From Fidelibacterota bacterium (GTDB lineage: Bacteria > Fidelibacterota > UBA2242), in NCBI GenBank assembly GCA_035448825.1, contig DAOTJS010000004.1:29339-93338 (forward strand): a stretch of DNA of 64,000 nucleotides, given 5' to 3'. Below, one piece after another: positions 13,257 through 29,342 of the stretch. The notes beneath the pieces were generated by a model. That model saw only the letters and a list, made by a program, of their open reading frames with translations. It searched no databases and was not told the origin of the DNA. Numbering within the stretch: position 1 is the stretch's first letter; every line of letters starts with the position of its first letter. The position numbers and the translations under genes are program-made.

Positions 13257-13330
13257 AATATACGAAAGCCTAAACCAGAAATGAAGGAAATCGTTAAAAG
13301 ACTGAGGTCGAGGCTAAGAAAAGAGGAAAT

Positions 13331-13482
13331 GTCACCCTGAGCTTTAAAGTCACTCTGAGCTTGTCGAAGAGTGACACTATTGCTTATCCTATGCCTATCA
13401 AGTAACTCATGCTTCGATGAACTCATGCTTCGATAAACTCAGCATGACACAGTAAGTCACCCTGAGTCCATCGAAGGGTGAC
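13331..13482. repeat. Hairpin-repeat cluster A (stem / TCGAnnnnCTC loop / stem units)
   Basis: Perfect hairpins at 13349-13375 (GTCACTCT/AGAGTGAC), 13424-13446 (CATGCT/AGCATG) and 13456-13482 (GTCACCCT/AGGGTGAC). There is an orphan arm at 13331-13342 and a conserved spacer ...CTTATCCTATGCCTATCAAGTAACTC. Confidence 0.9.
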
Positions 13483-13777
13483 AGTCCTTCCTTTTCCAAT
13501 AAGCCACTGATAGTTCTGGCAATTTATCCCATTCACCGTTAATCAATGCTTCTTTTTTGGCTCTTCTCCATCCTTTTATTTTCTTCTCATTCTCAATAGC
13601 AGACATAATATCCATTTCTTCTGAACACCATGCCAGCTTTACCGGTAGCCGGGAATGAATATAACCTTTTACAAAGCCGGATTGATGTTCGTAAAGTCTC
13701 CTTTCTGGATTATTGGTTACCCCGGTATAATAGGAACCGTCTGAACATTCAAGTATGTAAACAAATCCTGTTTTCAC
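13457..13777 (-). CDS. GIY-YIG nuclease superfamily protein (small stand-alone URI-domain type, COG2827-like)
   Basis: 106 aa. Contains FVYILECSDGSYYTGVTNNPERRLYEHQSG (GIY...YIG plus a conserved Arg and Glu) and an EKKIKGW helix. The last 8 codons (CHPSMDSG) are encoded by hairpin repeat 13456-13482. Confidence 0.9.
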   Translation of the reverse strand: MKTGFVYILECSDGSYYTGVTNNPERRLYEHQSGFVKGYIHSRLPVKLAWCSEEMDIMSAIENEKKIKGWRRAKKEALINGEWDKLPELSVAYWKRKDCHPSMDSG

Positions 13778-13790
13778 AATTTATTCGGCT

Positions 13791-14036
13791 ATCCTTCAAT
13801 GCTTCGATAAACTCATGCTTCGATAAACTCAGGATGACAGGAAAACTCACAATGTCACCCTGAGTGTGTCGAAGAGTGACAATATCGCTTATCCTATATC
13901 TATCAAGTAACTCATCCTTCGATGAACTCAGGATGACGATGAACTCATGCTTCGATGAACTCATGCTTCGATGAACTCATGCTTCGATGAACTCAGCATG
14001 ACATAGTAAGTCACCCTGAGTCCATCGAAGGGTGAC
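13791..14036. repeat. Hairpin-repeat cluster B
   Basis: Hairpins at 13854-13880 (one mismatch), 13913-13935 (CATCCT/AGGATG), 13978-14000 (CATGCT/AGCATG) and 14010-14036 (GTCACCCT/AGGGTGAC). Four tandem 16-nt half units CGATGAACTCATGCTT occupy 13937-14000. Confidence 0.9.
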
Positions 14037-14395
14037 CTAAAACAATCAGTTACATAAATAACGCCGGCAACAAAGTCAATCAGGTAAATTCTTTACTTAA
14101 TTAACACCATCTTCTTGATTTCGCTAAAGCGCTTACTTTTATTACTCATATCCAGAACCTCTAACCGGTAAAAATACAACCCACTGGTAAAATCTGCGCG
14201 AGGGCTGAATTTCATAGTATAAACTCCAGGACTCTTGATGCCATCTTCTAGCGTAAGTACTTTCTGACCAATAAGATTGTAAACCTCGATCTTAACTAGT
14301 GACTGTGAACTGAGCGAATAGGTTATCGTAGTCGCTGAGTTGAACGGATTGGGATAGTTCTGAGATAGAGAGTAAAACGGTATTTTCATTTCTTC
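13995..14395. repeat. Shared 3' module, copy 1 (T9SS C-terminal domain + 3' UTR + terminal hairpin); near-identical to 17720-18120
   Basis: Constant offset of 3725 nt to copy 2. The encoded last 100 aa differ at only a few positions, and the 3' flank CCTAAAACAATCAGTTACATAAATAACGCCGGCAACAAAGTCAATCAGG is identical. Confidence 0.9.
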
Positions 14396-17260
14396 TTCAT
14401 TAATCTTAGTTCCATTCGAGCTATACTTAATCGTGGTGTAAACGCTCCAGGTGTAAACGCCCCAGTAATATCCTTCACTATTTCCAGTAACAAAAACATT
14501 TCCATAACCGTCAACAGCAATATCTGCAGCCAAATAATAAACATTTCCTTGTCCATTATATCGAGCTACCCATTGCTCTTCGCCATTTGAGTTGTACTTC
14601 ACGGTCGCATAATCATTATTTGTTCCTGAGCCTTCGCTTCTTCCGGTAACATAAACATTGCCAGAACCATCGATGGCAAGAGCTTTAGCCTCGTCCCAAT
14701 CATTTCTTGGTCCATTATACCTTGCTACCCACTGCTCTTCGCCATTTGAACTATACTTAATAGTCGCGTAATCAGGCAATAATTCTGAACCATAACTATA
14801 TCCCGTAACATAAACATTGCCAGAACCATCAATAGCAAGAGCATTGGCATAGTCCCAAGAATTTCCCGGTCCATTATACCTTACTACCCATTGCTCTTCG
14901 CCATTTGAGTTGTACTTCACGGTCGCATAATCATCACCTGTTTCTGAACCAGAACTACATCCAGTAACATAAACATTGCCAGAACCATCAATAGCAAGAG
15001 CATAGGCCTCGTCATCATAATTTCCTGGTCCATTATACCTTGCTACCCACTTCTCTTCACCATTTGAACTATACTTAATAGTAGCGTAATCATGCCTTGA
15101 TTCTGAACCCTTACTATATCCGGTAACATAAACATTGCCAGAACCATCAATAGCAAGAGCATAGGCCTCGTCATCATAATTTCCTGGTCCATTATACCTT
15201 GCTACCCATTGCTCTTCGCCATTTGAGTTATATTTAATAGTCGCATAATCATAATCTGTTCCTGAGCCTTCACTATATCCGGTAACATAAACATTGCCAG
15301 AACCATCAATAGCAAGAGCATTGGCATAGTCACAAAAATTTCCCGGTCCATTATATCGGGCTACCCACTGCTCTTCACCATTTGAGTTGTACTTCACGGT
15401 CGCATAATCATCATCTGTTCCTGAACCTTCGCTTCTACCGGTAACATAAACATTGCCAGAACCATCAATAGCAATAGCCTGAGCTTTATCATAAGAATTT
15501 CCCGGTCCATTATATCGGGCTACCCACTGCTCTTCACCATTTGAGTTGTACTTCACGGTCGCATAATCATCATCTGTTCCTGAACCTTCGCTTCTACCGG
15601 TAACATAAACATTGCCAGAACCATCAATAGCAATAGCCTGAGCTTTATCATAAGAATTTCCCGGTCCATTATATCGAGCTACCCACTGCTCTTCACCATT
15701 TGAGTTGTACTTCACGGTCGCATAATCATAATCTGTTCCTGAGCCATAGCTTTCTCCGGTAACATAAACATTGCCAGAACCATCAATAGCAATAGCATTG
15801 GCATAGTCCAAAGAATTTCCCGGTCCATTATATCGGGCTACCCATTGCTCTTCACCATTGGAGTTGTACTTCACGGTCGCATAATCAACAACTGTTTCTG
15901 AACCATAGCTATATCCGGTAACATAAACATTCCCAGAACCATCAATAGCAATAGCCTGAGCTTCATCATAAGAGTTTCCTGGTCTATTATATCGGGCTAC
16001 CCATTGCTCTTCACCATTTGAGTTGTACTTCACGGTCGCATAATCCTCTTCTGTTTCTGAACCATAGCTATATCCGGTAACATAAACATTGCTAGAACCA
16101 TCAATTGCAATAGCATAGGCATCGTCACAAAAATTTCCTGGGCCATTATATCGGGCTACCCATTGCTCTTCACCATTGGAGTTGTACTTCACGGTCGCAT
16201 AATCATAATCTGTTCCTGAGCCATAGCTTTCTCCGGTAACATAAACATTGCCAGAACCATCAATAGCAAGAGCTTCTGCATAGTCACAAAAATTTCCTGG
16301 TCCATTATATCGGGCTACCCATTGCTCTTCACCATTTGAGTTATATTTAATAGTCGCATAATCATAATCTGTTCCTGAGCCTTCACTATATCCGGTAACA
16401 TAAACATTGCCAGAACCATCAATAGCAAGAGCATTGGCATAGTCACAAAAATTTCCCGGTCCATTATATCGGGCTACCCACTGCTCTTCACCATTTGAGT
16501 TGTACTTCACGGTCGCATAATCATCATATGTTCCTGAGCCATAGCTATATCCGGTAACATACACATTGCCAGAGCCATCAATAGCAAGAGCATTGGCATA
16601 GTCATCAGTATTTCCTGGTCCATTATATCGGGCTACCCACTGCTCTTCGCCATTTGAGTTATATTTAATAGTCGCATAATCATAATATGTTCCCGAACAA
16701 TCGCTTTCTCCGGTAACATAAACATTGCCAAAACTGTCAATAGCCAGAGCAGATGCAAAATCATCTCCTCCATTATCATACCTAACCGCCCAGATTGTAT
16801 TACCAGAATTGTCATATTTTACAGTAAAATAATCTACTCCAAATGGTAGTCCTGTACTATACCCGGTAACATAGATATAACCCTGATTATCAACGGCAAT
16901 ATCAGTTGCGACATCCTTGGCTGGATCCAGTCCAGAGGCATAGTGCCTTACCCATTCCGGTTCCTTATTAGTAGTTGAGGTACTCTGGAGATTGAGAACA
17001 GAAGTAGCATCTCGAGACCCAGAAGGATAGGGATCTCTATAAGGTTGTTCGTCTGAGCGTTCGACTGAGCTCACGCCTTGGTCCATCGGAAACTTAGGAT
17101 GATGATGCCGGTTAAAATGTTCACTTTTCTCTAATCGCTCTTCCGAAAATCGGGAATGATGTGGTGAGTCTATCAAACTACGATTTGCCGGTGACTCCTG
17201 GGAATGGGCTACAAGTCCTGCCAAAACAAAAACAACTAATGAAACAAAATACCTTTTCAT
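14093..17260 (-). CDS. T9SS-secreted SBBP (beta-propeller) repeat protein
   Basis: 1055 aa. Signal peptide MKRYFVSLVVFVLAGLVAHSQ, then a His-rich segment. About 15 tandem 53-aa repeats follow (DYATVKYNSNGEEQWVARYNGPGN..D.A.AIAIDGSGNVYVTG.S.GS). The C-terminal Por secretion tail reads LSQNYPNPFNSATTITYSL...SGLYFYRLEV. Confidence 0.9.
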   Translation of the reverse strand: MKRYFVSLVVFVLAGLVAHSQESPANRSLIDSPHHSRFSEERLEKSEHFNRHHHPKFPMDQGVSSVERSDEQPYRDPYPSGSRDATSVLNLQSTSTTNKEPEWVRHYASGLDPAKDVATDIAVDNQGYIYVTGYSTGLPFGVDYFTVKYDNSGNTIWAVRYDNGGDDFASALAIDSFGNVYVTGESDCSGTYYDYATIKYNSNGEEQWVARYNGPGNTDDYANALAIDGSGNVYVTGYSYGSGTYDDYATVKYNSNGEEQWVARYNGPGNFCDYANALAIDGSGNVYVTGYSEGSGTDYDYATIKYNSNGEEQWVARYNGPGNFCDYAEALAIDGSGNVYVTGESYGSGTDYDYATVKYNSNGEEQWVARYNGPGNFCDDAYAIAIDGSSNVYVTGYSYGSETEEDYATVKYNSNGEEQWVARYNRPGNSYDEAQAIAIDGSGNVYVTGYSYGSETVVDYATVKYNSNGEEQWVARYNGPGNSLDYANAIAIDGSGNVYVTGESYGSGTDYDYATVKYNSNGEEQWVARYNGPGNSYDKAQAIAIDGSGNVYVTGRSEGSGTDDDYATVKYNSNGEEQWVARYNGPGNSYDKAQAIAIDGSGNVYVTGRSEGSGTDDDYATVKYNSNGEEQWVARYNGPGNFCDYANALAIDGSGNVYVTGYSEGSGTDYDYATIKYNSNGEEQWVARYNGPGNYDDEAYALAIDGSGNVYVTGYSKGSESRHDYATIKYSSNGEEKWVARYNGPGNYDDEAYALAIDGSGNVYVTGCSSGSETGDDYATVKYNSNGEEQWVVRYNGPGNSWDYANALAIDGSGNVYVTGYSYGSELLPDYATIKYSSNGEEQWVARYNGPRNDWDEAKALAIDGSGNVYVTGRSEGSGTNNDYATVKYNSNGEEQWVARYNGQGNVYYLAADIAVDGYGNVFVTGNSEGYYWGVYTWSVYTTIKYSSNGTKINEEEMKIPFYSLSQNYPNPFNSATTITYSLSSQSLVKIEVYNLIGQKVLTLEDGIKSPGVYTMKFSPRADFTSGLYFYRLEVLDMSNKSKRFSEIKKMVLIK

Positions 17261-17604
17261 AACATACCTACTCTATAATTTGTTAAACTTTTCAACTGAC
17301 TAACTTCAGGTAAGTAAAGTAAATAGACAGCACTATTCGCCTTCCTACCGAGCCTCAAAGTAATTTTATAAGTGAAACTTCCTGCCATGCTTTTTTCTTT
17401 TTATAATATTACTAATATTTAGAACTAATTCAAGCTTTTAATTGATATTTTTGGACTTCAAGAGGACTTTTAGAAGGTTATCGTTTATCTATTCTCAAGG
17501 CATGGGCGTTGGCACGAAATAAATCGCCATGCTTCGATAAACTCATCCTTCGATAAACTCAGGATGACATCCTTAGTATCATTCTGAGAAATGTCACCCT
17601 GAGC
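17051..17604. repeat. Shared 5' module, copy 1 (N-terminal about 70 codons + about 270-nt leader/promoter region + start of hairpin cluster); about 93 percent identical by eye to 19975-20528
   Basis: Constant offset of 2924 nt. The N-terminal peptide is identical: AGLVAHSQESPANRSLIDSPHHSRFSEERLEKSEHFNRHHHPKFPMDQGV. Confidence 0.9.
17406..17433 (-). promoter_or_regulatory. Sigma-70-like promoter candidate for the SBBP gene
   Basis: Minus strand TTGAAT (17433-17428), 16-nt spacer, TAATAT (17411-17406), about 145 nt upstream of the ATG. Conserved in the paralog leader. Confidence 0.3.
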
Positions 17605-17761
17605 TCTAATGTCACTCTGAGCCTGTCGAAGAGTGACATTATCGCTTATCCTATGCCTATCAAGTAACTCATCCTTCGATAAACTCAGGATGACGATAAA
17701 CTCATGCTTCGATAAACTCAGCATGACATAGTAAGTCACCCTGAGTCCATCGAAGGGTGAC
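17528..17761. repeat. Hairpin-repeat cluster C
   Basis: Hairpins at 17544-17566 and 17670-17692 (CATCCT/AGGATG), 17611-17637 (GTCACTCT/AGAGTGAC), 17703-17725 (CATGCT/AGCATG) and 17735-17761 (GTCACCCT/AGGGTGAC). Confidence 0.9.
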
Positions 17762-18120
17762 CTAAAACAATCAGTTACATAAATAACGCCGGCAACAAAG
17801 TCAATCAGGTAAATTCTTTACTTAATTAACACCATCTTCTTGATTTCGCTAAAGCGCTTACTTTTATTACTCATATCCAGAACCTCTAACCGGTAAAAAT
17901 ACAACCCACTGGTAAAATCTGCGCGAGGGCTGAATTTCATAGTATAAACTCCAGGACTCTTGATGCCATCTTCTAGCGTAAGTACTTTCTGACCAATAAG
18001 GTTGTAAATCTCGATCTTAACTAGTGACTGTGAACTGATCGAATAGGTTATAGTAGTAGCCGAGTTGAACGGATTGGGATAGTTCTGGGATAGAGAGTAA
18101 ACCGGTGGTTTCATTTCTTC
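17720..18120. repeat. Shared 3' module, copy 2 (see 13995-14395)
   Basis: Same sequence as copy 1 at an offset of 3725 nt. Confidence 0.9.
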
Positions 18121-20184
18121 GTCCTCTATTCCCACTGCACCAGAGAATTGATAGATTTGTAATCCAGCACTCCCATCTGCGACATAGGCATATGACCCTG
18201 AAACATAAACATTCTCAGCATACTCAGGTGTATCATAATATCCTGCTTCATAAGGTGAAGAAGGGTCTGAAACATTGATTATACTTAGACCAGCAGAACC
18301 ACCTGCAACATAGGCATAAGCCCCTGAAACATAAACGTCCTCAGCCCAATCAGGTATATCATAATATCCTGCTTCGTAATAAGGTGAAGAAGGGTCTGAA
18401 ACATTGATTATCCTTAAACCATACCCATATACAACATAGGCATAAGAACCTGAAACATAAACATCTAAAGCCCAATCAGGTATATCATAATATCCTGCTT
18501 CGTAAGGTGAAGAAGGGTCTGAAACATTGATTATCCTTAAACCAGCATACTCATCTGCAACATAGGCATAAGACCCTGAAACATAAACATCTAAAGCACA
18601 CCCAGGTGTAGCATAATATCCTGCTTCGTAAGGCGAAGAAGGATCTGAAACATTTATTATCCTTAGACCAGCTTCACTGTCTGCAACATAGGCATAAGAA
18701 CCTGAAACATAAACACCATAAGTCCACCCAGGTGTATCATAATATCCTGCTTCGTAAGGTGAAGAAGGGTCTGAAACACTTATTATCCTTAGACCAGCTT
18801 CACTGTCTGCAATATAGGCATAAGAACCTGAAACATAAACATCTAAAGTCCACCCAGGTGTATCATAATATCCTGTTTCGTAAGGTGAAGAAGGGTCTGA
18901 AACATTGATTATCTTTAAACAATACCCATCTGCAACATAGGCATAAGAACCTGAAACATAAACATTCTCAGCATACCCAGGTGTATCATAATATCCTGCT
19001 TCGTAAGGTGAAGAAGGGTCTGAAACATTGATTATCTTTAGACCAGCATACTCATCTACAACATAGGCATAAGAACCTGAAACATAAACATCTAAAGCCC
19101 ACCCAGGTGTAGCATAATATCCTGCTTCATAAGGTGAAGAAGGGTCTGAAACATTGATTATCCTTAAACCATACCCATCTACAACATAGACATAAGACCC
19201 TGAAACATAAATACCCAGAGCATTATCAGATATATCATAATATCCTGCTTCGTAAGGTGAAGAAGGGTCTGAAACATTGACTATCCTTAAACCAGCAAAC
19301 TCATCTGCAACATAGGCATAAGACCCTGAAACATAAACATCTAAAGCCCACCCAGGTGTAGCATGATATCCTGCTTCATAAGGCGAAGAAGGATCTGAAA
19401 CACTTATTATCCTTAGACCAGCTTCACTGTCTGCAACATAGGCATAAGAACCTGAAACATAAACACCATAAGTCCACCCAGGTGTATCATAATATCCTGC
19501 TTCGTAAGGTGAAGAAGGGTCTGAAACATTGATTATCCTTAGACCAGCAAACTCATCTGCAACATAGGCATAAGACCCTGAAACATAAACATCTAAAGCA
19601 TAATTAGGTGTAAAATAATAACCCAATTTAGAGGGGCTTTCAGTATTGGCTACATTCCATATTTCAAGCCCACCTTGACCATCCGCAATGTAAAGTTGCT
19701 GGTTTGATGATTCATAGAAAAAGCCTTCAACAACACCCCTCGTATAGATTGCCTCTGAGATTTTTATCGGATTTGAAGGAACTGAGACATCAAGAATATA
19801 GACACCTCCCCCTGAACCGGCAAATGCAAGATTCCTTACGTTGTCATAGGCAACCGCAAAAGGAAGACCAAATGGCCAATTACCTACAAATCTTACATTC
19901 AAAGAGTCAAAACTTGAAGAGACAGCATAGGCATCTCGAGAGTCTGAAGAATAGTGATTTCTCTGAGGGTGTCCGTCTGAGCGTTCAACTGAGATCACGC
20001 CTTGGTCCATCGGAAACTTAGGATGATGATGCCGATTAAAATGTTCACTTTTCTCTAATCGCTCTTCCGAAAATCGGGAATGATGTGGTGAGTCTATCAA
20101 ACTACGATTTGCCGGTGACTCCTGGGAATGGGCTACAAGTCCTGCCAAAACAAAAATAACTAATGAAACAAAACACCTTTTCAT
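17818..20184 (-). CDS. T9SS-secreted LVIVD repeat protein
   Basis: 788 aa. It has the same signal peptide and His-rich N-terminus as the SBBP paralog. About 13 tandem repeats of 41-42 aa follow (GSYAYVAD..AGLRIINVSDPSSPYEAGYYDTPGW..DVYVS). The Por secretion tail is the same. Confidence 0.9.
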   Translation of the reverse strand: MKRCFVSLVIFVLAGLVAHSQESPANRSLIDSPHHSRFSEERLEKSEHFNRHHHPKFPMDQGVISVERSDGHPQRNHYSSDSRDAYAVSSSFDSLNVRFVGNWPFGLPFAVAYDNVRNLAFAGSGGGVYILDVSVPSNPIKISEAIYTRGVVEGFFYESSNQQLYIADGQGGLEIWNVANTESPSKLGYYFTPNYALDVYVSGSYAYVADEFAGLRIINVSDPSSPYEAGYYDTPGWTYGVYVSGSYAYVADSEAGLRIISVSDPSSPYEAGYHATPGWALDVYVSGSYAYVADEFAGLRIVNVSDPSSPYEAGYYDISDNALGIYVSGSYVYVVDGYGLRIINVSDPSSPYEAGYYATPGWALDVYVSGSYAYVVDEYAGLKIINVSDPSSPYEAGYYDTPGYAENVYVSGSYAYVADGYCLKIINVSDPSSPYETGYYDTPGWTLDVYVSGSYAYIADSEAGLRIISVSDPSSPYEAGYYDTPGWTYGVYVSGSYAYVADSEAGLRIINVSDPSSPYEAGYYATPGCALDVYVSGSYAYVADEYAGLRIINVSDPSSPYEAGYYDIPDWALDVYVSGSYAYVVYGYGLRIINVSDPSSPYYEAGYYDIPDWAEDVYVSGAYAYVAGGSAGLSIINVSDPSSPYEAGYYDTPEYAENVYVSGSYAYVADGSAGLQIYQFSGAVGIEDEEMKPPVYSLSQNYPNPFNSATTITYSISSQSLVKIEIYNLIGQKVLTLEDGIKSPGVYTMKFSPRADFTSGLYFYRLEVLDMSNKSKRFSEIKKMVLIK

Positions 20185-20528
20185 AACATACCTACTCTAT
20201 AATTTGTCAAACTTTCCAACTGACTAACTTCAGGCAAGTAAGGTAAATAGACAGCACTATTCACCTTCCTACCGAGCCTCAAAGTAATTTTATGAGTGAA
20301 ACTTCCTGCCATGCTATTTTATTTTTATAATATTACGAATATTTAGAATTAATTCAAGCTTTTAGTGGATATTTTTGGACTTCAAGTGGACTTTTAGAAG
20401 GTTATCGTTTATCTATTCTCAAGGCATGGGCGTTGGCACGAAATAAATCGCCATGCTTCGATAAACTCATCCTTCGATGAACTCAGGATGACATCCTTAG
20501 TATCATTCTGAGAAATGTCACCCTGAGT
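19975..20528. repeat. Shared 5' module, copy 2 (see 17051-17604)
   Basis: Offset of 2924 nt from copy 1. Confidence 0.9.
20330..20357 (-). promoter_or_regulatory. Sigma-70-like promoter candidate for the LVIVD gene (paralogous to 17406-17433)
   Basis: TTGAAT (20357-20352), 16-nt spacer, TAATAT (20335-20330) on the minus strand. Confidence 0.3.
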
Positions 20529-20699
20529 GTGTCGAAGGGCGACAACATCTCTTATCCTATATCTATCAAGTAACTCATCCTTCGATAAACTCATCCTTCG
20601 ATGAACTCAGGATGACAATGAACTCATGCTTCGATGAACTCACGCTTCGACAGGCTCAGCGTGACATGGTAGGTTACCCTTCGGTAACCTCAGCATGAC
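20452..20699. repeat. Hairpin-repeat cluster D
   Basis: Hairpins at 20468-20490 and 20592-20614 (CATCCT/AGGATG), 20517-20543 (one mismatch), 20641-20663 (CACGCT/AGCGTG) and GGTTACC/GGTAACC at 20672-20689. Terminal arm AGCATG at 20692-20697. Confidence 0.9.
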
Positions 20700-21019
20700 A
20701 TTTTTTGTCTTCTCTTTTTTCTCAGCCTTAGCCTAAAAATGCCGAAGACCAGGAGAAACATCTCCAATCCTTCCCCCTTTCTAATTTCCTCCCAATCAAT
20801 CGCCAATTGTCGAGATTTATCTGGCAAATTATCTCTATTTTTCCTAAATTTGAATCGTGATTTTTGGTATTTTTTTCTTTAATTTCAATCAATTTCTGAA
20901 TATTAAAACCAATTTAACTAGATCAAGGTTTTTACATTTAAATCGAGTATTTTCAGAAAACAAATCAGTTTTTCCGCTTCAAATATAATAGGTAACCATT
21001 TAAAACAAAGGTGATAAAA

Positions 21020-26409: not shown

Positions 26410-27054
26410 CTAAGTAGTTTCGGCTTCGATTAAATACAAATCCTCCCGATCAATTACCTCGCAAATCCTAAACGACATCCTTTCCAGACGAGTAACGACT
26501 TCTACTGCAGGCGGTAATAAATCGCCGCTAACCGGAAATCCGATCTGACGATGTTTGGAATTAATTACCTCCCGACCGTGGGGATGAACTATCAGTAGGC
26601 GTCCGCCGGATTTTAAAACGCGGCGATAATCAGACAAAGCTTGACAACTGTTTTTAATATGCGGAAAAATGCAATAATTCAGAACTACATCAATACTGTC
26701 GCTCTTCAAAGGTAACTCTTCACAGTAGCCAGCCCAGAGGGGTATTGTATTATTCGGAAAACGACAGCGGCTTTCGCTCAGCATCTTTCTGGAAATGTCG
26801 CAGGCGATAATAGTTGCCAGCGGTACGATTTCTTTCAATATCGGAAATAAATTCCCTGTTCCACAGCCGGCATCCAGAATTACTCCGGATTCAGGTAATT
26901 GGACTGATTTCAAAATTTTCTCGGCTTGAATTCGATCCAATTCGGATAAGTGCCAGCCGGCCGCTTGCTCATCGAAATATTTAATATTATTCTTATAACC
27001 TGCCGTATTCATTTGTCTAAAATAAATCAATACTTCAAGGTTATCCCGATCCAA
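26410..27054 (-). CDS. Class I SAM-dependent methyltransferase
   Basis: Motif I VILDAGCGTGNLF and the post-I acidic residue in IIACDIS. The likely real start is ATG 27012 (MNTAGYK), which removes the overlap with the upstream receptor gene. Confidence 0.75.
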   Translation of the reverse strand: MDRDNLEVLIYFRQMNTAGYKNNIKYFDEQAAGWHLSELDRIQAEKILKSVQLPESGVILDAGCGTGNLFPILKEIVPLATIIACDISRKMLSESRCRFPNNTIPLWAGYCEELPLKSDSIDVVLNYCIFPHIKNSCQALSDYRRVLKSGGRLLIVHPHGREVINSKHRQIGFPVSGDLLPPAVEVVTRLERMSFRICEVIDREDLYLIEAETT

Positions 27055-28910
27055 AAGTTGCGGCCCGGCAAAGGATAATGGTACATAGTTTCATATTTCA
27101 CATTGGTCAGATTCTCAATTTCGGCAGTTAGATCAACGAATTGGTTGATTACGTAGCTACTCCGCCAGTTTAGCAGCCAGTAACTATTTAAACGTTTATA
27201 GACCGGTTGTCCATAACTGTACGGATTGGCGACACTATAAAGATTGTTAACCCACTGGCTCTGTAAAGTCAGATGTACCTTTTCGGTCGGATTCCAGCGC
27301 AAACTAAGATCGCATTTTTGGCTGGGATTGCCGCTGACTTTCCGAGACGCAGAATTGACACTCATCGTCCAGGAAGTGGAAAAATTTCGGGCGATAATTA
27401 ATTGTCCTTCCCATTCGATACCTTTTAAAACTACCTCACCGCGATTTTGATAAACCGGCAGGCCGGAGACAAAACCCTTTTCGATCAAATTTTCGGCTCT
27501 CGTATTATAAAATGACAGAGTCGTTGTCAGCCGTCCGACGATTTCTTTCTCAACGATAAATTCCAGATTAGTCGAAAGTTCCGGTTTTAAATCAGTAGTT
27601 GACGGAATGAATAAATAAAGTTCATTGATCGTCGGATTGCGGTAGCCTCTGGCAAATTGAGTTTTCAGATACCAACCTTCTGGTAAACGGAGAGCTATAC
27701 CGAGCGCTGGTATCCATTCCGCACCGACAACCGAATGATGGGTATAGCGCAATCCACCGTCGAGATTAGCGCATGAAAATAATTTGCGGTTAAATTGAGT
27801 AACGAGGCTTTGTTCGGCGACGGAGTGCTTTTTCCAGGTCGAATCCAACCAGGCTTTGCCACCATACTGACGCCAATCTATCCCTACCATTACGCGTGAC
27901 TTTTCAGAATGGTAGAAAGTCTCGGTCAATATCAAACCCGCCGTGTAATCATCCGATAAATATTTATTCGGATCATCAATATCATGATGCCCACAATTAT
28001 AATGCAATTTCAAATCGCTAACCAATTTCACTCGATTATGATTCAAAGTCAGATCACCACCGCGCCGTTGGATGTCATAGCGATGATTGGTAAAAGGATT
28101 GTCGGTTTGCCCCGGATCGTAAATTTCCATATTCGAAAAATAGGCATTGGCATCAGCCCGCCAGGCATTGTCAATTTGCCAGTGAGCTTCGGCGGTACCG
28201 TTCTGATTCGAATAATCGTCTCTCCCGTCCGTTCGGTATCCGTCACTGCTAACCGTCCCAACCGTTCCCGAGACTCCCCAACTTTTCCGTTCGAACGACT
28301 GATAAAGATTTAATTGATGCGAATTAAAACTACCGAACCTAACAGGCATACGCAAATGGTAACCCGGTTCGGCTTTATGATCCGTGATAATATTAATCGC
28401 TCCGCCCATCGCATTCGAACCATACAAAAGGGAAGCCGGACCGCGCTGAACCTCGATTTTTTTGACATTTTCAGCAAAATAAACATCGCCCAGCGGATGA
28501 CCGAAAAGTCCCATTACATCTGGACGGCCGTCTATTAAAACTAATACCTGAGTAGTCGGAAAACTACCGATACCTCTCAGAGAAATCTGACCACCCGCAC
28601 CACTGCTCAGTCCATATCCAAGATTCGTGCGCCTAGTAATAAATAATCCCGGCACATTTTCGGATAACAAATCCAGAAGTGGCGTCCCACTTTGTTCGCT
28701 TAATACATTTTCCGAAATGACTGTAATAGCAACCGGCAGTTCATGCCGATTTATCGCCGTGCGCGACCCGGTCACCACTACCGGATCGAACGGAAAAACT
28801 TTCAGCGTATCGGTATAAATTGCCGCAGAGTTTAAACTCACCGACATTAAAACAATTAATAAAAAAAATTTTAATCCATATTTAATATTCATTTTCCAAT
28901 CTCTTTCCAA
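27027..28910 (-). CDS. TonB-dependent outer-membrane receptor
   Basis: Plug-domain motifs PVVVTGSRT and ISLRGIG, a beta-barrel-length body, and a C-terminal GRNFWIGITLKY ending in an aromatic residue. The start is probably MNIKYG at 28892. Confidence 0.88.
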   Translation of the reverse strand: MERDWKMNIKYGLKFFLLIVLMSVSLNSAAIYTDTLKVFPFDPVVVTGSRTAINRHELPVAITVISENVLSEQSGTPLLDLLSENVPGLFITRRTNLGYGLSSGAGGQISLRGIGSFPTTQVLVLIDGRPDVMGLFGHPLGDVYFAENVKKIEVQRGPASLLYGSNAMGGAINIITDHKAEPGYHLRMPVRFGSFNSHQLNLYQSFERKSWGVSGTVGTVSSDGYRTDGRDDYSNQNGTAEAHWQIDNAWRADANAYFSNMEIYDPGQTDNPFTNHRYDIQRRGGDLTLNHNRVKLVSDLKLHYNCGHHDIDDPNKYLSDDYTAGLILTETFYHSEKSRVMVGIDWRQYGGKAWLDSTWKKHSVAEQSLVTQFNRKLFSCANLDGGLRYTHHSVVGAEWIPALGIALRLPEGWYLKTQFARGYRNPTINELYLFIPSTTDLKPELSTNLEFIVEKEIVGRLTTTLSFYNTRAENLIEKGFVSGLPVYQNRGEVVLKGIEWEGQLIIARNFSTSWTMSVNSASRKVSGNPSQKCDLSLRWNPTEKVHLTLQSQWVNNLYSVANPYSYGQPVYKRLNSYWLLNWRSSYVINQFVDLTAEIENLTNVKYETMYHYPLPGRNFWIGITLKY

Positions 28911-28919
28911 TCTCTGCTA

Positions 28920-29342
28920 TTATAAACCCGGTAGGTTTTTACCTGTTGAGGTAAAGGTCAATTTGCCATGTTTAACCCCGCGCAAACCAATCAGCCGCTC
29001 GGCGATATTCCGTATAGATGAGCACCGCCCGCGCAAGACGATTACCTCGAGACAATTATGTTGATCGAGATGAAAATGAATATTCGCCATAATATTCTGG
29101 TATGACTCGTGTTGCATAGACTTCAGTTTTGCCGCCAAATCAGCAACGTGATGATCGTAGATCAAGGTTAATGTTCCGACAACCTCGGCATCGGAATCAA
29201 CTTCCTTCTGGACTAAAAATTCCCGAATTAGGTCACGCAAGGCTTCCGAACGATTAGAGTAGCCTCTGCGTTGAATTTCATTGTCGTAGCGTAAAAGCAG
29301 GTCTTCCGGTAGAGAAACTCCGAATCTAATCAAGCCAGCCAT
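28920..29342 (-). CDS. nikR: Nickel-responsive transcriptional regulator NikR
   Basis: N-terminal ribbon-helix-helix IRFGVSLPEDLL...RSEALRDLIREFL. The C-terminal metal-binding domain has HFHLDQHNC, matching the HxHx5C high-affinity Ni site spacing. ATG 29342 is preceded by GAGGTGA (the track starts at GTG 29348). Confidence 0.88.
   Translation of the reverse strand: MAGLIRFGVSLPEDLLLRYDNEIQRRGYSNRSEALRDLIREFLVQKEVDSDAEVVGTLTLIYDHHVADLAAKLKSMQHESYQNIMANIHFHLDQHNCLEVIVLRGRCSSIRNIAERLIGLRGVKHGKLTFTSTGKNLPGL

Follow-up and report, generated by a model that had tools for sequence, protein, structure and literature searches.

Tandem genes for predicted type IX secretion cargo in a Marinimicrobia genome share near-identical ends around unrelated beta-propeller cores

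Two Adjacent Genes with Shared Ends and Unrelated Cores

The 64-kb stretch of contig DAOTJS010000004.1 analyzed here (the window, meaning the stretch at its full length) belongs to a chromosome derived from a metagenome-assembled genome (MAG) of the uncultured lineage Candidatus Marinimicrobia (Neomarinimicrobiota), and carries on its minus strand two adjacent genes for predicted cargo of the type IX secretion system (T9SS), here called A and B. The locus and its flanking open reading frames (ORFs) were assessed by Pfam scans, gene lists, and blastn self-comparison. Gene A occupies 14093-17260 (1055 aa) and gene B 17818-20184 (788 aa), exactly the two reading frames singled out by an earlier note on this DNA. 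Read 5′ to 3′ on the minus strand, the order is hairpin cluster 3, leader, B, 3′ untranslated region (3′UTR), cluster 2, leader, A, 3′UTR, cluster 1, a gene encoding a GIY-YIG nuclease, and cluster 0 (Table 1).

The central parts of the two genes belong to different repeat families, as the note had claimed. Pfam assigned 16 SBBP stretches to gene A (PF06739, E=6e-99) and 12 LVIVD stretches to gene B (PF08309, E=7e-126), the latter also matching the choice-of-anchor B model TIGR04312 in NCBIfam. The repeats have a period of 159 nt in A (13.9 copies) and 126 nt in B (11.4 copies), and the units in both arrays are 86-87% identical to one another. No similarity was detected between the A and B cores (BLASTP E=22), whose nucleotide divergence of ~65% is that of unrelated sequences; this excludes a whole-gene duplication with overlooked core similarity, which the note had allowed for.

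Both proteins carry a T9SS type A sorting domain that scored above the curated cutoffs, in A with Por_Secre_tail PF18962 at 27.5 bits (cutoff 27) and TIGR04183 at 31.6 bits (cutoff 23), and in B with the same models at 29.4 and 35 bits. The matches fall in the last ~85 residues (aa 969-1035 in A). By eye, the N terminus of A and B reads MKR followed by the hydrophobic stretch YFVSLVVFVLAGLVA and HSQE, a putative Sec signal peptide. Judged from their domain content, A and B would thus be Sec-exported, T9SS-sorted beta-propeller proteins, either surface-bound or secreted. No match to the T9SS machinery (PorK/L/M/N, Sov/SprA, PorU/V) was found among the scanned ORFs of the window, and a literature search for this system in Marinimicrobia was unproductive. 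Two deposited proteins, HPC35338.1 and HRS52212.1 from assemblies GCA_035451345.1 and GCA_035385405.1, correspond to gene A.

The ends of the two genes, in contrast to their cores, are nearly the same at exactly the two constant offsets given in the note. At an offset of 2924 nt, 534 of the 554 positions in 17051-17604 are identical (96.4%), and at an offset of 3725 nt the same holds for 391 of the 401 positions in 13995-14395 (97.5%), against a mean of 26% and a maximum of 32% over 2000 random offsets. The 5′ module comprises the leader and ~70-85 codons; codons 1-69 are nearly identical, in line with the ~70 codons first reported, and a weaker shared zone (76% identical) adds codons 70-85. 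The 3′ module comprises the sorting domain, the 3′UTR, and hairpins. Directly core-ward of both modules the identity drops to 38-50%. Hairpin clusters bound each gene on both sides, as claimed, but the shared part does not end at the terminal hairpin: similarity extends over the full length of the clusters (13800-14037, 17530-17762, and 20443-20701 resemble one another). What is repeated is thus the entire unit of cluster, leader, gene, 3′UTR, and cluster.

Table 1. Features of the A/B locus (window coordinates)
Feature	Coordinates	Strand	Description
Hairpin cluster 0	13326..13483		3′ of GIY-YIG gene; partial direct copy of clusters 1 and 2
GIY-YIG nuclease gene	13457..13777	-	106 aa, stand-alone; PF01541 E=6.8e-15; between clusters 0 and 1
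Hairpin cluster 1	13789..14037		Directly 3′ of gene A; GTCAnnCTGAG-N4-TCGAAGnnTGAC palindromes and 16-nt partial-unit runs
Gene A 3′UTR	14038..14092	-	100% identical to gene B 3′UTR
Gene A 3′ module	14093..14395	-	~14-aa linker and T9SS type A sorting domain
Gene A core	14396..17005	-	SBBP beta-propeller repeats; 159-nt array 14543-16751
Gene A N-terminal module	17006..17260	-	Putative signal peptide and His/Arg/Ser/Glu-rich segment, codons 1-85
Gene A leader	17261..17530	-	Non-coding, ~270 nt
Hairpin cluster 2	17519..17762		Between B and A; one side matches cluster 1, the other cluster 3
Gene B 3′UTR	17763..17817	-	Alignment with gene A 3′UTR
Gene B 3′ module	17818..18120	-	Linker and T9SS sorting domain
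Gene B core	18121..19929	-	LVIVD beta-propeller repeats; 126-nt array 18174-19599
Gene B N-terminal module	19930..20184	-	Codons 1-85
Gene B leader	20185..20454	-	Alignment with gene A leader
Hairpin cluster 3	20443..20701		Upstream of gene B leader

Mosaic Divergence of the Shared Ends

A related gene, A′, served as the third sequence for comparison. It comprises the proteins P0124-P0126 and a 22-member cluster, all annotated as SBBP proteins of Marinimicrobia (e.g., GCA_035431965.1), and shares with A and B a homologous leader (~89%), the N-terminal module, and the C-terminal sorting domain (CTD, 87% aa identity). Site patterns and distances among A, B, and A′ were determined by segment (Table 2) and compared by Fisher tests.

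Divergence between A and B was highly uneven. The outer CTD (14093-14268) showed no difference at 176 sites and the 3′UTR with the first hairpins none at 87, and the contrast between inner and outer 3′ module was significant (p=1e-5), as was that between codons 70-85 and the rest of the 5′ module (p=9e-6). The topology also switched within the N-terminal module (p=3e-5), with codons 1-61 favoring ((A,B),A′) by 23 sites with A=B≠A′ to 2 with A=A′≠B, and codons 70-85 favoring ((A,A′),B) by 9 sites to 2. Site patterns in the outer segments favored ((A,B),A′), and the inner CTD was star-like, the three sequences being roughly equidistant. Segments of the paralogues are thus closer to each other within the genome than to the relative, and adjacent topologies are discordant, as is expected of concerted evolution by interlocus gene conversion.

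Table 2. Divergence by segment among A, B, and A′
Segment	d(A,B)	d(A,A′)	d(B,A′)
Leader	0.048	0.107	
Codons 1-61	0.017	0.134	
Codons 70-85	0.229	0.083	
Inner CTD, 14269-14395	0.079 (10/127)	0.102	0.087
Outer CTD, 3′UTR, and first hairpins, 13996-14268	0/263	0.10, 0.31, and 0.44, respectively	

Selection cannot explain the identity of A and B, since the identical tract includes the least constrained sequence, the 3′UTR and hairpins, which are 31-44% diverged from A′. Nor is a single duplication date sufficient, given divergences of 0%, 5%, and 8% in adjoining segments. The simplest reading of these patterns would be that the two direct repeats have exchanged sequence more than once, by recombination or gene conversion, in tracts ending at or before the non-homologous cores. 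Of the module swapping proposed in the earlier note, the sharing of ends through recombination held up (mosaic divergence, p~1e-5), but the exchange of cargo cores did not, the protein searches having turned up no pool of them.

Strain contigs gave two further patterns. In one strain (L001), five sites of A (14046, 14099, 14147, 14159, and 14183) depart from the B copy of that strain, all within the stretch where A and B of the window are identical; one of them turns Glu into Asp, the A′ residue. In another (L003), the homologous sites 14046 and 17771 share one alternative base in both copies. Both fit recent conversion and are suggestive only, as a collapsed-repeat assembly would also give identical copies.

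Recovery of the Locus in Other Assemblies

All assemblies compared were short-read metagenome data. The B-A order was recovered in ~10 of them, collinear and 98.9-100% identical, including JGI samples 3300025689, 3300010347, and 3300009667, the ENA assemblies ERZ795052 and ERZ795050 (SPAdes-style NODE names) and ERZ27257464 and ERZ27257402 (k141-style names, taken as MEGAHIT), and two NCBI MAGs. A 2.6-kb JGI contig (L005) runs from the A core through leader, cluster 2, and B tail into the B core. A DNA-pattern search for the PHHSRFSEERLEK peptide matched one JGI contig, with the same A/B junction, and no GTDB genome. Because the same order came from several samples and assemblers and one contig spans the junction, a one-off chimera is very unlikely, and with it the chimeric assembly of repeats that the note had named as its possible undoing.

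The ERZ27257402 contig (L094), aligned to window positions 26980-15825, is 82-93% identical from 26980 to ~22600 and 100% identical from a point inside pepF through B into A. Either recombination brought the pair from one lineage into another that is ~12% diverged, or sequences of two co-occurring species have been joined in a chimeric contig. The same contig (6607-8472) holds, in the same B-A context, a shorter B allele (P0121, 621 aa) with four fewer LVIVD repeats (window ~19000-19571) and no other difference. The length variants of B and A′ could be real polymorphisms or collapsed assemblies. A 730-aa call for B in another contig (L096) was rejected as a variant; its DNA is identical and the start call different.

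Within the SBBP array of gene A, strain differences were patchy at 16003-16451, with 11 single-nucleotide polymorphisms in 16429-16451 in two strains, and in L003 one 159-nt unit was effectively swapped (insertion at 16178, deletion of 16003-16161). These patches fit conversion between repeat units inside the array, or assembler choice between units.

Leader and Hairpin Clusters

The A and B leaders are 95% identical, and both the A leader and coding sequence diverge from A′ to a comparable degree, the leader being approximately three times better conserved than the 3′UTR. Since this conservation is at the level of coding sequence, the leader is probably functional, as a putative promoter plus 5′UTR, and A and B would be under the same 5′ control region. 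It matched no known RNA family in Rfam, and RNAalifold gave no covariation-supported structure. A 43-codon upstream ORF called in one annotation was rejected as coding: substitutions fall evenly over codon positions and the frame is truncated in A′.

Where 0.7 matches to the hairpin motif CTGAGNNNNTCGAAG would be expected in the window, 27 were counted, 26 of them in a 7.4-kb region (13355-20693). Full palindromes are mixed with the partial-unit runs, in both orientations. Stems of the 26 units at 13348-20700 come in five complementary variants (ACT/AGT, ACC/GGT, ATG/CAT, ATC/GAT, and ACG/CGT), which indicates selection for structure, not sequence, and cluster 2 folds into a far more stable structure than shuffled sequence (z=-7.2). 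No canonical U-tract or intrinsic terminator above background and no Rfam family at gathering thresholds was found in the clusters; at a lax threshold, Rfam returned only palindrome-driven noise far below threshold. The motif was absent from 80 loci of other genomes of the Fibrobacterota-Chlorobiota-Bacteroidota group and of unrelated genomes. Partial-unit arrays, such as that at 13909-13995, resemble slippage products of half a hairpin.

Clusters 1, 2, and 3 are mutual copies with small indels of 16-nt units, and cluster 0, the fourth, lies on the far side of the GIY-YIG gene (blastn, 13326-13482 versus 17588-17761 at 86% and 13404-13482 versus 13958-14036 at 97.5%). The GIY-YIG gene is thereby placed between direct cluster copies at 13346-13482 and 13851-14036 (79 nt at 97.5%), and the end of its reading frame extends into a hairpin. 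An exact match to the protein came from this locus only, and homologues were present in none of the other fetched loci.

Downstream of A and B alike, the first hairpin stands 55 nt past the stop codon and so probably ends or stabilizes the transcript. The clusters would be palindromic elements akin to repetitive extragenic palindromes (REP) and bacterial interspersed mosaic elements (BIME), probably acting as 3′ terminators or mRNA stabilizers and offering a source of homology for duplication; they would not be recombination sites of the integron type. Like REP/BIME (PMC3733652), they are palindromes of ~27 nt with compensatory stem variation, in both orientations and at intergenic gene 3′ ends, and are plausible both as terminators or stabilizers and as substrates for duplication by unequal crossing-over. 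Of the marks of REP elements, namely high copy number, a REP-associated tyrosine transposase (RAYT), and a GTAG or CGTC tag, the window lacks the last two: units here begin with GTCA, and the adjoining nuclease gene is of the GIY-YIG family, with no RAYT nearby. They differ further in that, within 64 kb, units are essentially confined to the surroundings of three genes, with one motif match outside. The layout of GIY-YIG gene between clusters recalls REP-flanked RAYT genes, with another nuclease family.

Occurrence of the Shared Ends Elsewhere

A′ is solitary and occupies a different locus, with YidD-side genes to one side and a convergent DUF72 gene to the other, and has there neither an LVIVD partner nor a GIY-YIG gene downstream. 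Direct copies of the cluster flank it on both sides and take in ~35 nt of the sequence next to them (61 nt at 84%, plus hairpins), and all five motif matches in the relative's 15.7-kb contig flank it. Its length varies (833, 889, and 1048-1052 aa). A′ was sampled far more often than A (22 versus 4 cluster members), none of the A/B-bearing samples or assemblies examined also has A′, and the MAG accessions differ; on these grounds we treated A′ as the gene of another species, which is not proven.

A pool of alternative cores between the same ends was not found. In a phmmer search with the 88-aa N-terminal module, 1.84 billion representatives yielded only the B allele P0121 and one spurious repeat protein; A itself was missing, so that its cluster representative evidently lacks the N-terminal module, and clustering at 50% identity conceals common ends of this kind. 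A chimeric query of N-terminal module, X spacer, and CTD, run against 5.8 billion clusters, recovered A at 398 bits, B at 354 bits, and the SBBP proteins P0124-P0126 at ~300 bits, followed at 95 bits by generic T9SS tails. Outside A, A′, and B, the closest matches to the CTD were generic CTDs at no more than 54% identity. With the ends found on SBBP and LVIVD proteins only, the idea of exchangeable cargo cores was not borne out.

The integron-like layout suggested for this locus fared no better. No integrase, recombinase, or transposase, and hence no adjacent IntI-type tyrosine recombinase, was found within 10 kb on either side or among the other scanned ORFs of the window. As in integron cassette arrays, genes of the same orientation are separated by a palindrome-rich structured element. 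In place of promoterless, unrelated cassettes each with one imperfect attC site behind an attI/Pc arrangement, however, each unit here has its own conserved 270-nt leader, is paralogous to the other except for the core, and is bounded by several short perfect hairpins, the reverse of integron cassettes. The alternation of cluster and gene needs no integron, as tandem duplication by unequal crossing-over gives it equally and A′ already has the flanked form.

Discussion

We consider it probable that A and B are tandem paralogous units that arose by duplication, with ends kept alike by recombination or gene conversion and with clusters of REP/BIME-like character. Direct repeats on both sides of a single gene are the classical setting in which unequal crossing-over yields a tandem duplication. 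The ancestor would have been one unit with direct cluster copies on either side, as A′ is at present, duplicated in this manner between its flanking clusters, and one copy would have come to carry an LVIVD core in place of the SBBP core, by a route that is not recoverable. The sequences show ends that have since been homogenized, most likely by recurrent exchange within the chromosome (recombination or gene conversion between the direct repeats), in tracts of different ages and endpoints that were unable to pass the non-homologous cores.

Several points weigh against this reading. In codons 70-85, 9 of the 11 changes are non-synonymous, and the divergence there may come from relaxed constraint in B, not greater age. 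An assembler can collapse a near-identical repeat into a node used twice, which would inflate the 100% tract and fake the covariation seen in L003. A′ may be a third paralogue instead of the orthologue from another species. Outside this species no LVIVD gene resembling B turned up, which bears on where the core came from and on what happened first. Finally, neither a sigma-70-like promoter above background nor a canonical terminator was predicted.

A single recent tandem duplication with one core replacement and no continuing exchange, the uneven divergence being a product of constraint and chance, is unlikely. The tandem unit structure fits it, the mostly non-synonymous change in codons 70-85 is consistent with relaxed constraint, and constraint on the leader is suggested by its 10.7% divergence from A′ (3′UTR, 31%). 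It does not account for adjacent CTD segments with 0/176 and 10/127 differences next to 0/87 in unconstrained 3′UTR and hairpins (p=1e-5), for an inner CTD of A that is equally far from B and A′ when the outer CTD is identical to B, or for the five differences within the tract in the A copy of L001.

A mobile cassette array, in which the clusters serve as recombination sites for the successive insertion of B, A, and the GIY-YIG gene, integron-like or driven by the GIY-YIG protein, we judge quite unlikely. Three same-strand genes are each bounded by direct cluster copies; the motif is concentrated at the locus here (26/27 matches of the 64 kb) and around A′ in the relative (5/5); A′ sits with flanking direct repeats at a different locus (YidD-side genes/DUF72); the region upstream of pepF differs in content in the closest GTDB genome; and the stems covary in five complementary variants. 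Yet A and B have leader, N terminus, CTD, and UTR in common and so are paralogues and did not arrive as independent insertions, the searches of billions of proteins found these ends with two core types only, the GIY-YIG protein occurs at this locus only, no empty site or circular form was seen, and the recombinase search described above was negative. A variant to which we give slightly less credit still takes the clusters as the ends of an undescribed mobile gene unit, with LVIVD, SBBP, and GIY-YIG units inserting or duplicating at hairpin sites and the nuclease perhaps doing the cutting. If true, it would explain both the presence of the SBBP unit at different loci in two related Marinimicrobia and the sighting of clusters around these units only.

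An assembly artefact, joining through repeats genes from elsewhere or alleles of different strains, is very improbable. The modules are repeats that exceed assembler k-mers, the relative's contigs break at clusters, and the jump of L094 from ~88% to 100% identity inside pepF suggests that chimeric contigs may exist. Against this, JGI, metaSPAdes, and MEGAHIT assemblies of different samples agree, L005 crosses from A into B, the 5′ modules differ at 20/554 sites, which is enough to separate the copies, and the alternative path through the identical tract would be circular. Programmed surface variation, with the common ends letting recombination switch, delete, or hybridize the two proteins in phase or antigenic variation, is least credible of all: each core does lie between direct repeats of 400-730 nt, alleles differing in repeat number are seen (B, 788 and 621 aa; A′, 833-1052 aa), and the strain patches are consistent with conversion between SBBP units, but neither a hybrid nor a single-gene deletion appeared in ~10 assemblies or protein searches, both genes are complete with their own leader, and there is no invertase and no silent copy.

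The pattern that we favor, duplicated units with recombining ends, is a clean example of an arrangement known from other bacterial surface-protein families and calls for no new mechanism. By analogy, the closest architectural precedent is the KLIKK group of Tannerella forsythia, where six genes for T9SS cargo have metallo- or serine-protease cores, a common signal peptide and N-terminal extension, and a virtually identical C-terminal extension and CTD (PMC4404884). Its authors proposed that pre-existing cores were fused to these end sequences, and noted that the identical motifs had led to assembly errors (PMC4404884). A and B likewise are clustered T9SS cargo genes with unrelated cores between common N-terminal and near-identical C-terminal parts, and so have a KLIKK-type architecture. 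The likeness is one of architecture, and with the A/B CTDs matching generic type A models only we claim no membership of the KLIKK group. Unlike KLIKK, there are only two genes, in an uncultured Marinimicrobia, their cores are beta-propeller repeat arrays and not proteases, the identity reaches into the non-coding leader, 3′UTR, and flanking hairpin clusters, and the segment-wise divergence points to ongoing exchange.

The closest mechanistic precedent, again by analogy, is the Helicobacter pylori bab family, in which babA, babB, and babC have an N-terminal homology region, a differing middle, and a C-terminal region >90% identical (PMC4552749). As far as that article reports (PMC4552749, citing Pride and Blaser 2002), the bab ends are homogenized by intragenomic gene conversion in concerted evolution; chimeras alter phase-variable expression (PMC4552749). 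Both are families of paralogues, for A and B of predicted surface or secreted proteins, with ends homogenized, in our case probably, by gene conversion. They differ in that the bab middles are mutually homologous and the loci dispersed, whereas the A and B cores are unrelated at the sequence level and the genes adjacent, and in that no chimeras were seen for A/B.

In a little-studied candidate phylum, then, T9SS cargo genes with unrelated cores can have near-identical secretion and regulatory ends, and this sharing would be maintained by recombination, not by descent alone. The locus offers a natural example of how new cargo can come under export and control sequences already in place. Short-read assemblies break or go astray at loci of this type, and family-level CTD phylogenies would be confounded by end sharing of this kind. 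What stays puzzling is the cluster element, its restriction to these units, the other locus in the relative, and the position of the GIY-YIG gene between two clusters; the association of hairpin clusters with GIY-YIG is the sole part that is possibly new.

Genomic Setting

The other genes of the window are those of an ordinary chromosome, including pepF, a second M3 peptidase, dCMP deaminase, a PAS sensor kinase, Nuo-type subunits, Dus, and RmlD. The window contained no tRNA genes and gave no Rfam hits. A NikR-type regulator and a TonB-dependent receptor are encoded at 27027-29342, ~7 kb from A/B. The shared N-terminal segment of A and B is His-rich (HH, HHH); as the His run is not conserved in A′, a link of A/B to metal is doubtful.

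In the closest GTDB genome by pepF (L006, 85% aa identity), no T9SS gene was present in the 2.4 kb before the contig end. This segment (1-2445, upstream of pepF) holds other palindromic repeats (TGTCATCCTGA..., TGTCATTCCGAGGAGGAACGACGAGGAATC) and small ORFs, including a DprA-like fragment, and the region upstream of pepF seems to be a variable spot in this lineage. The contig ends in a tandem array of ~32 nt.

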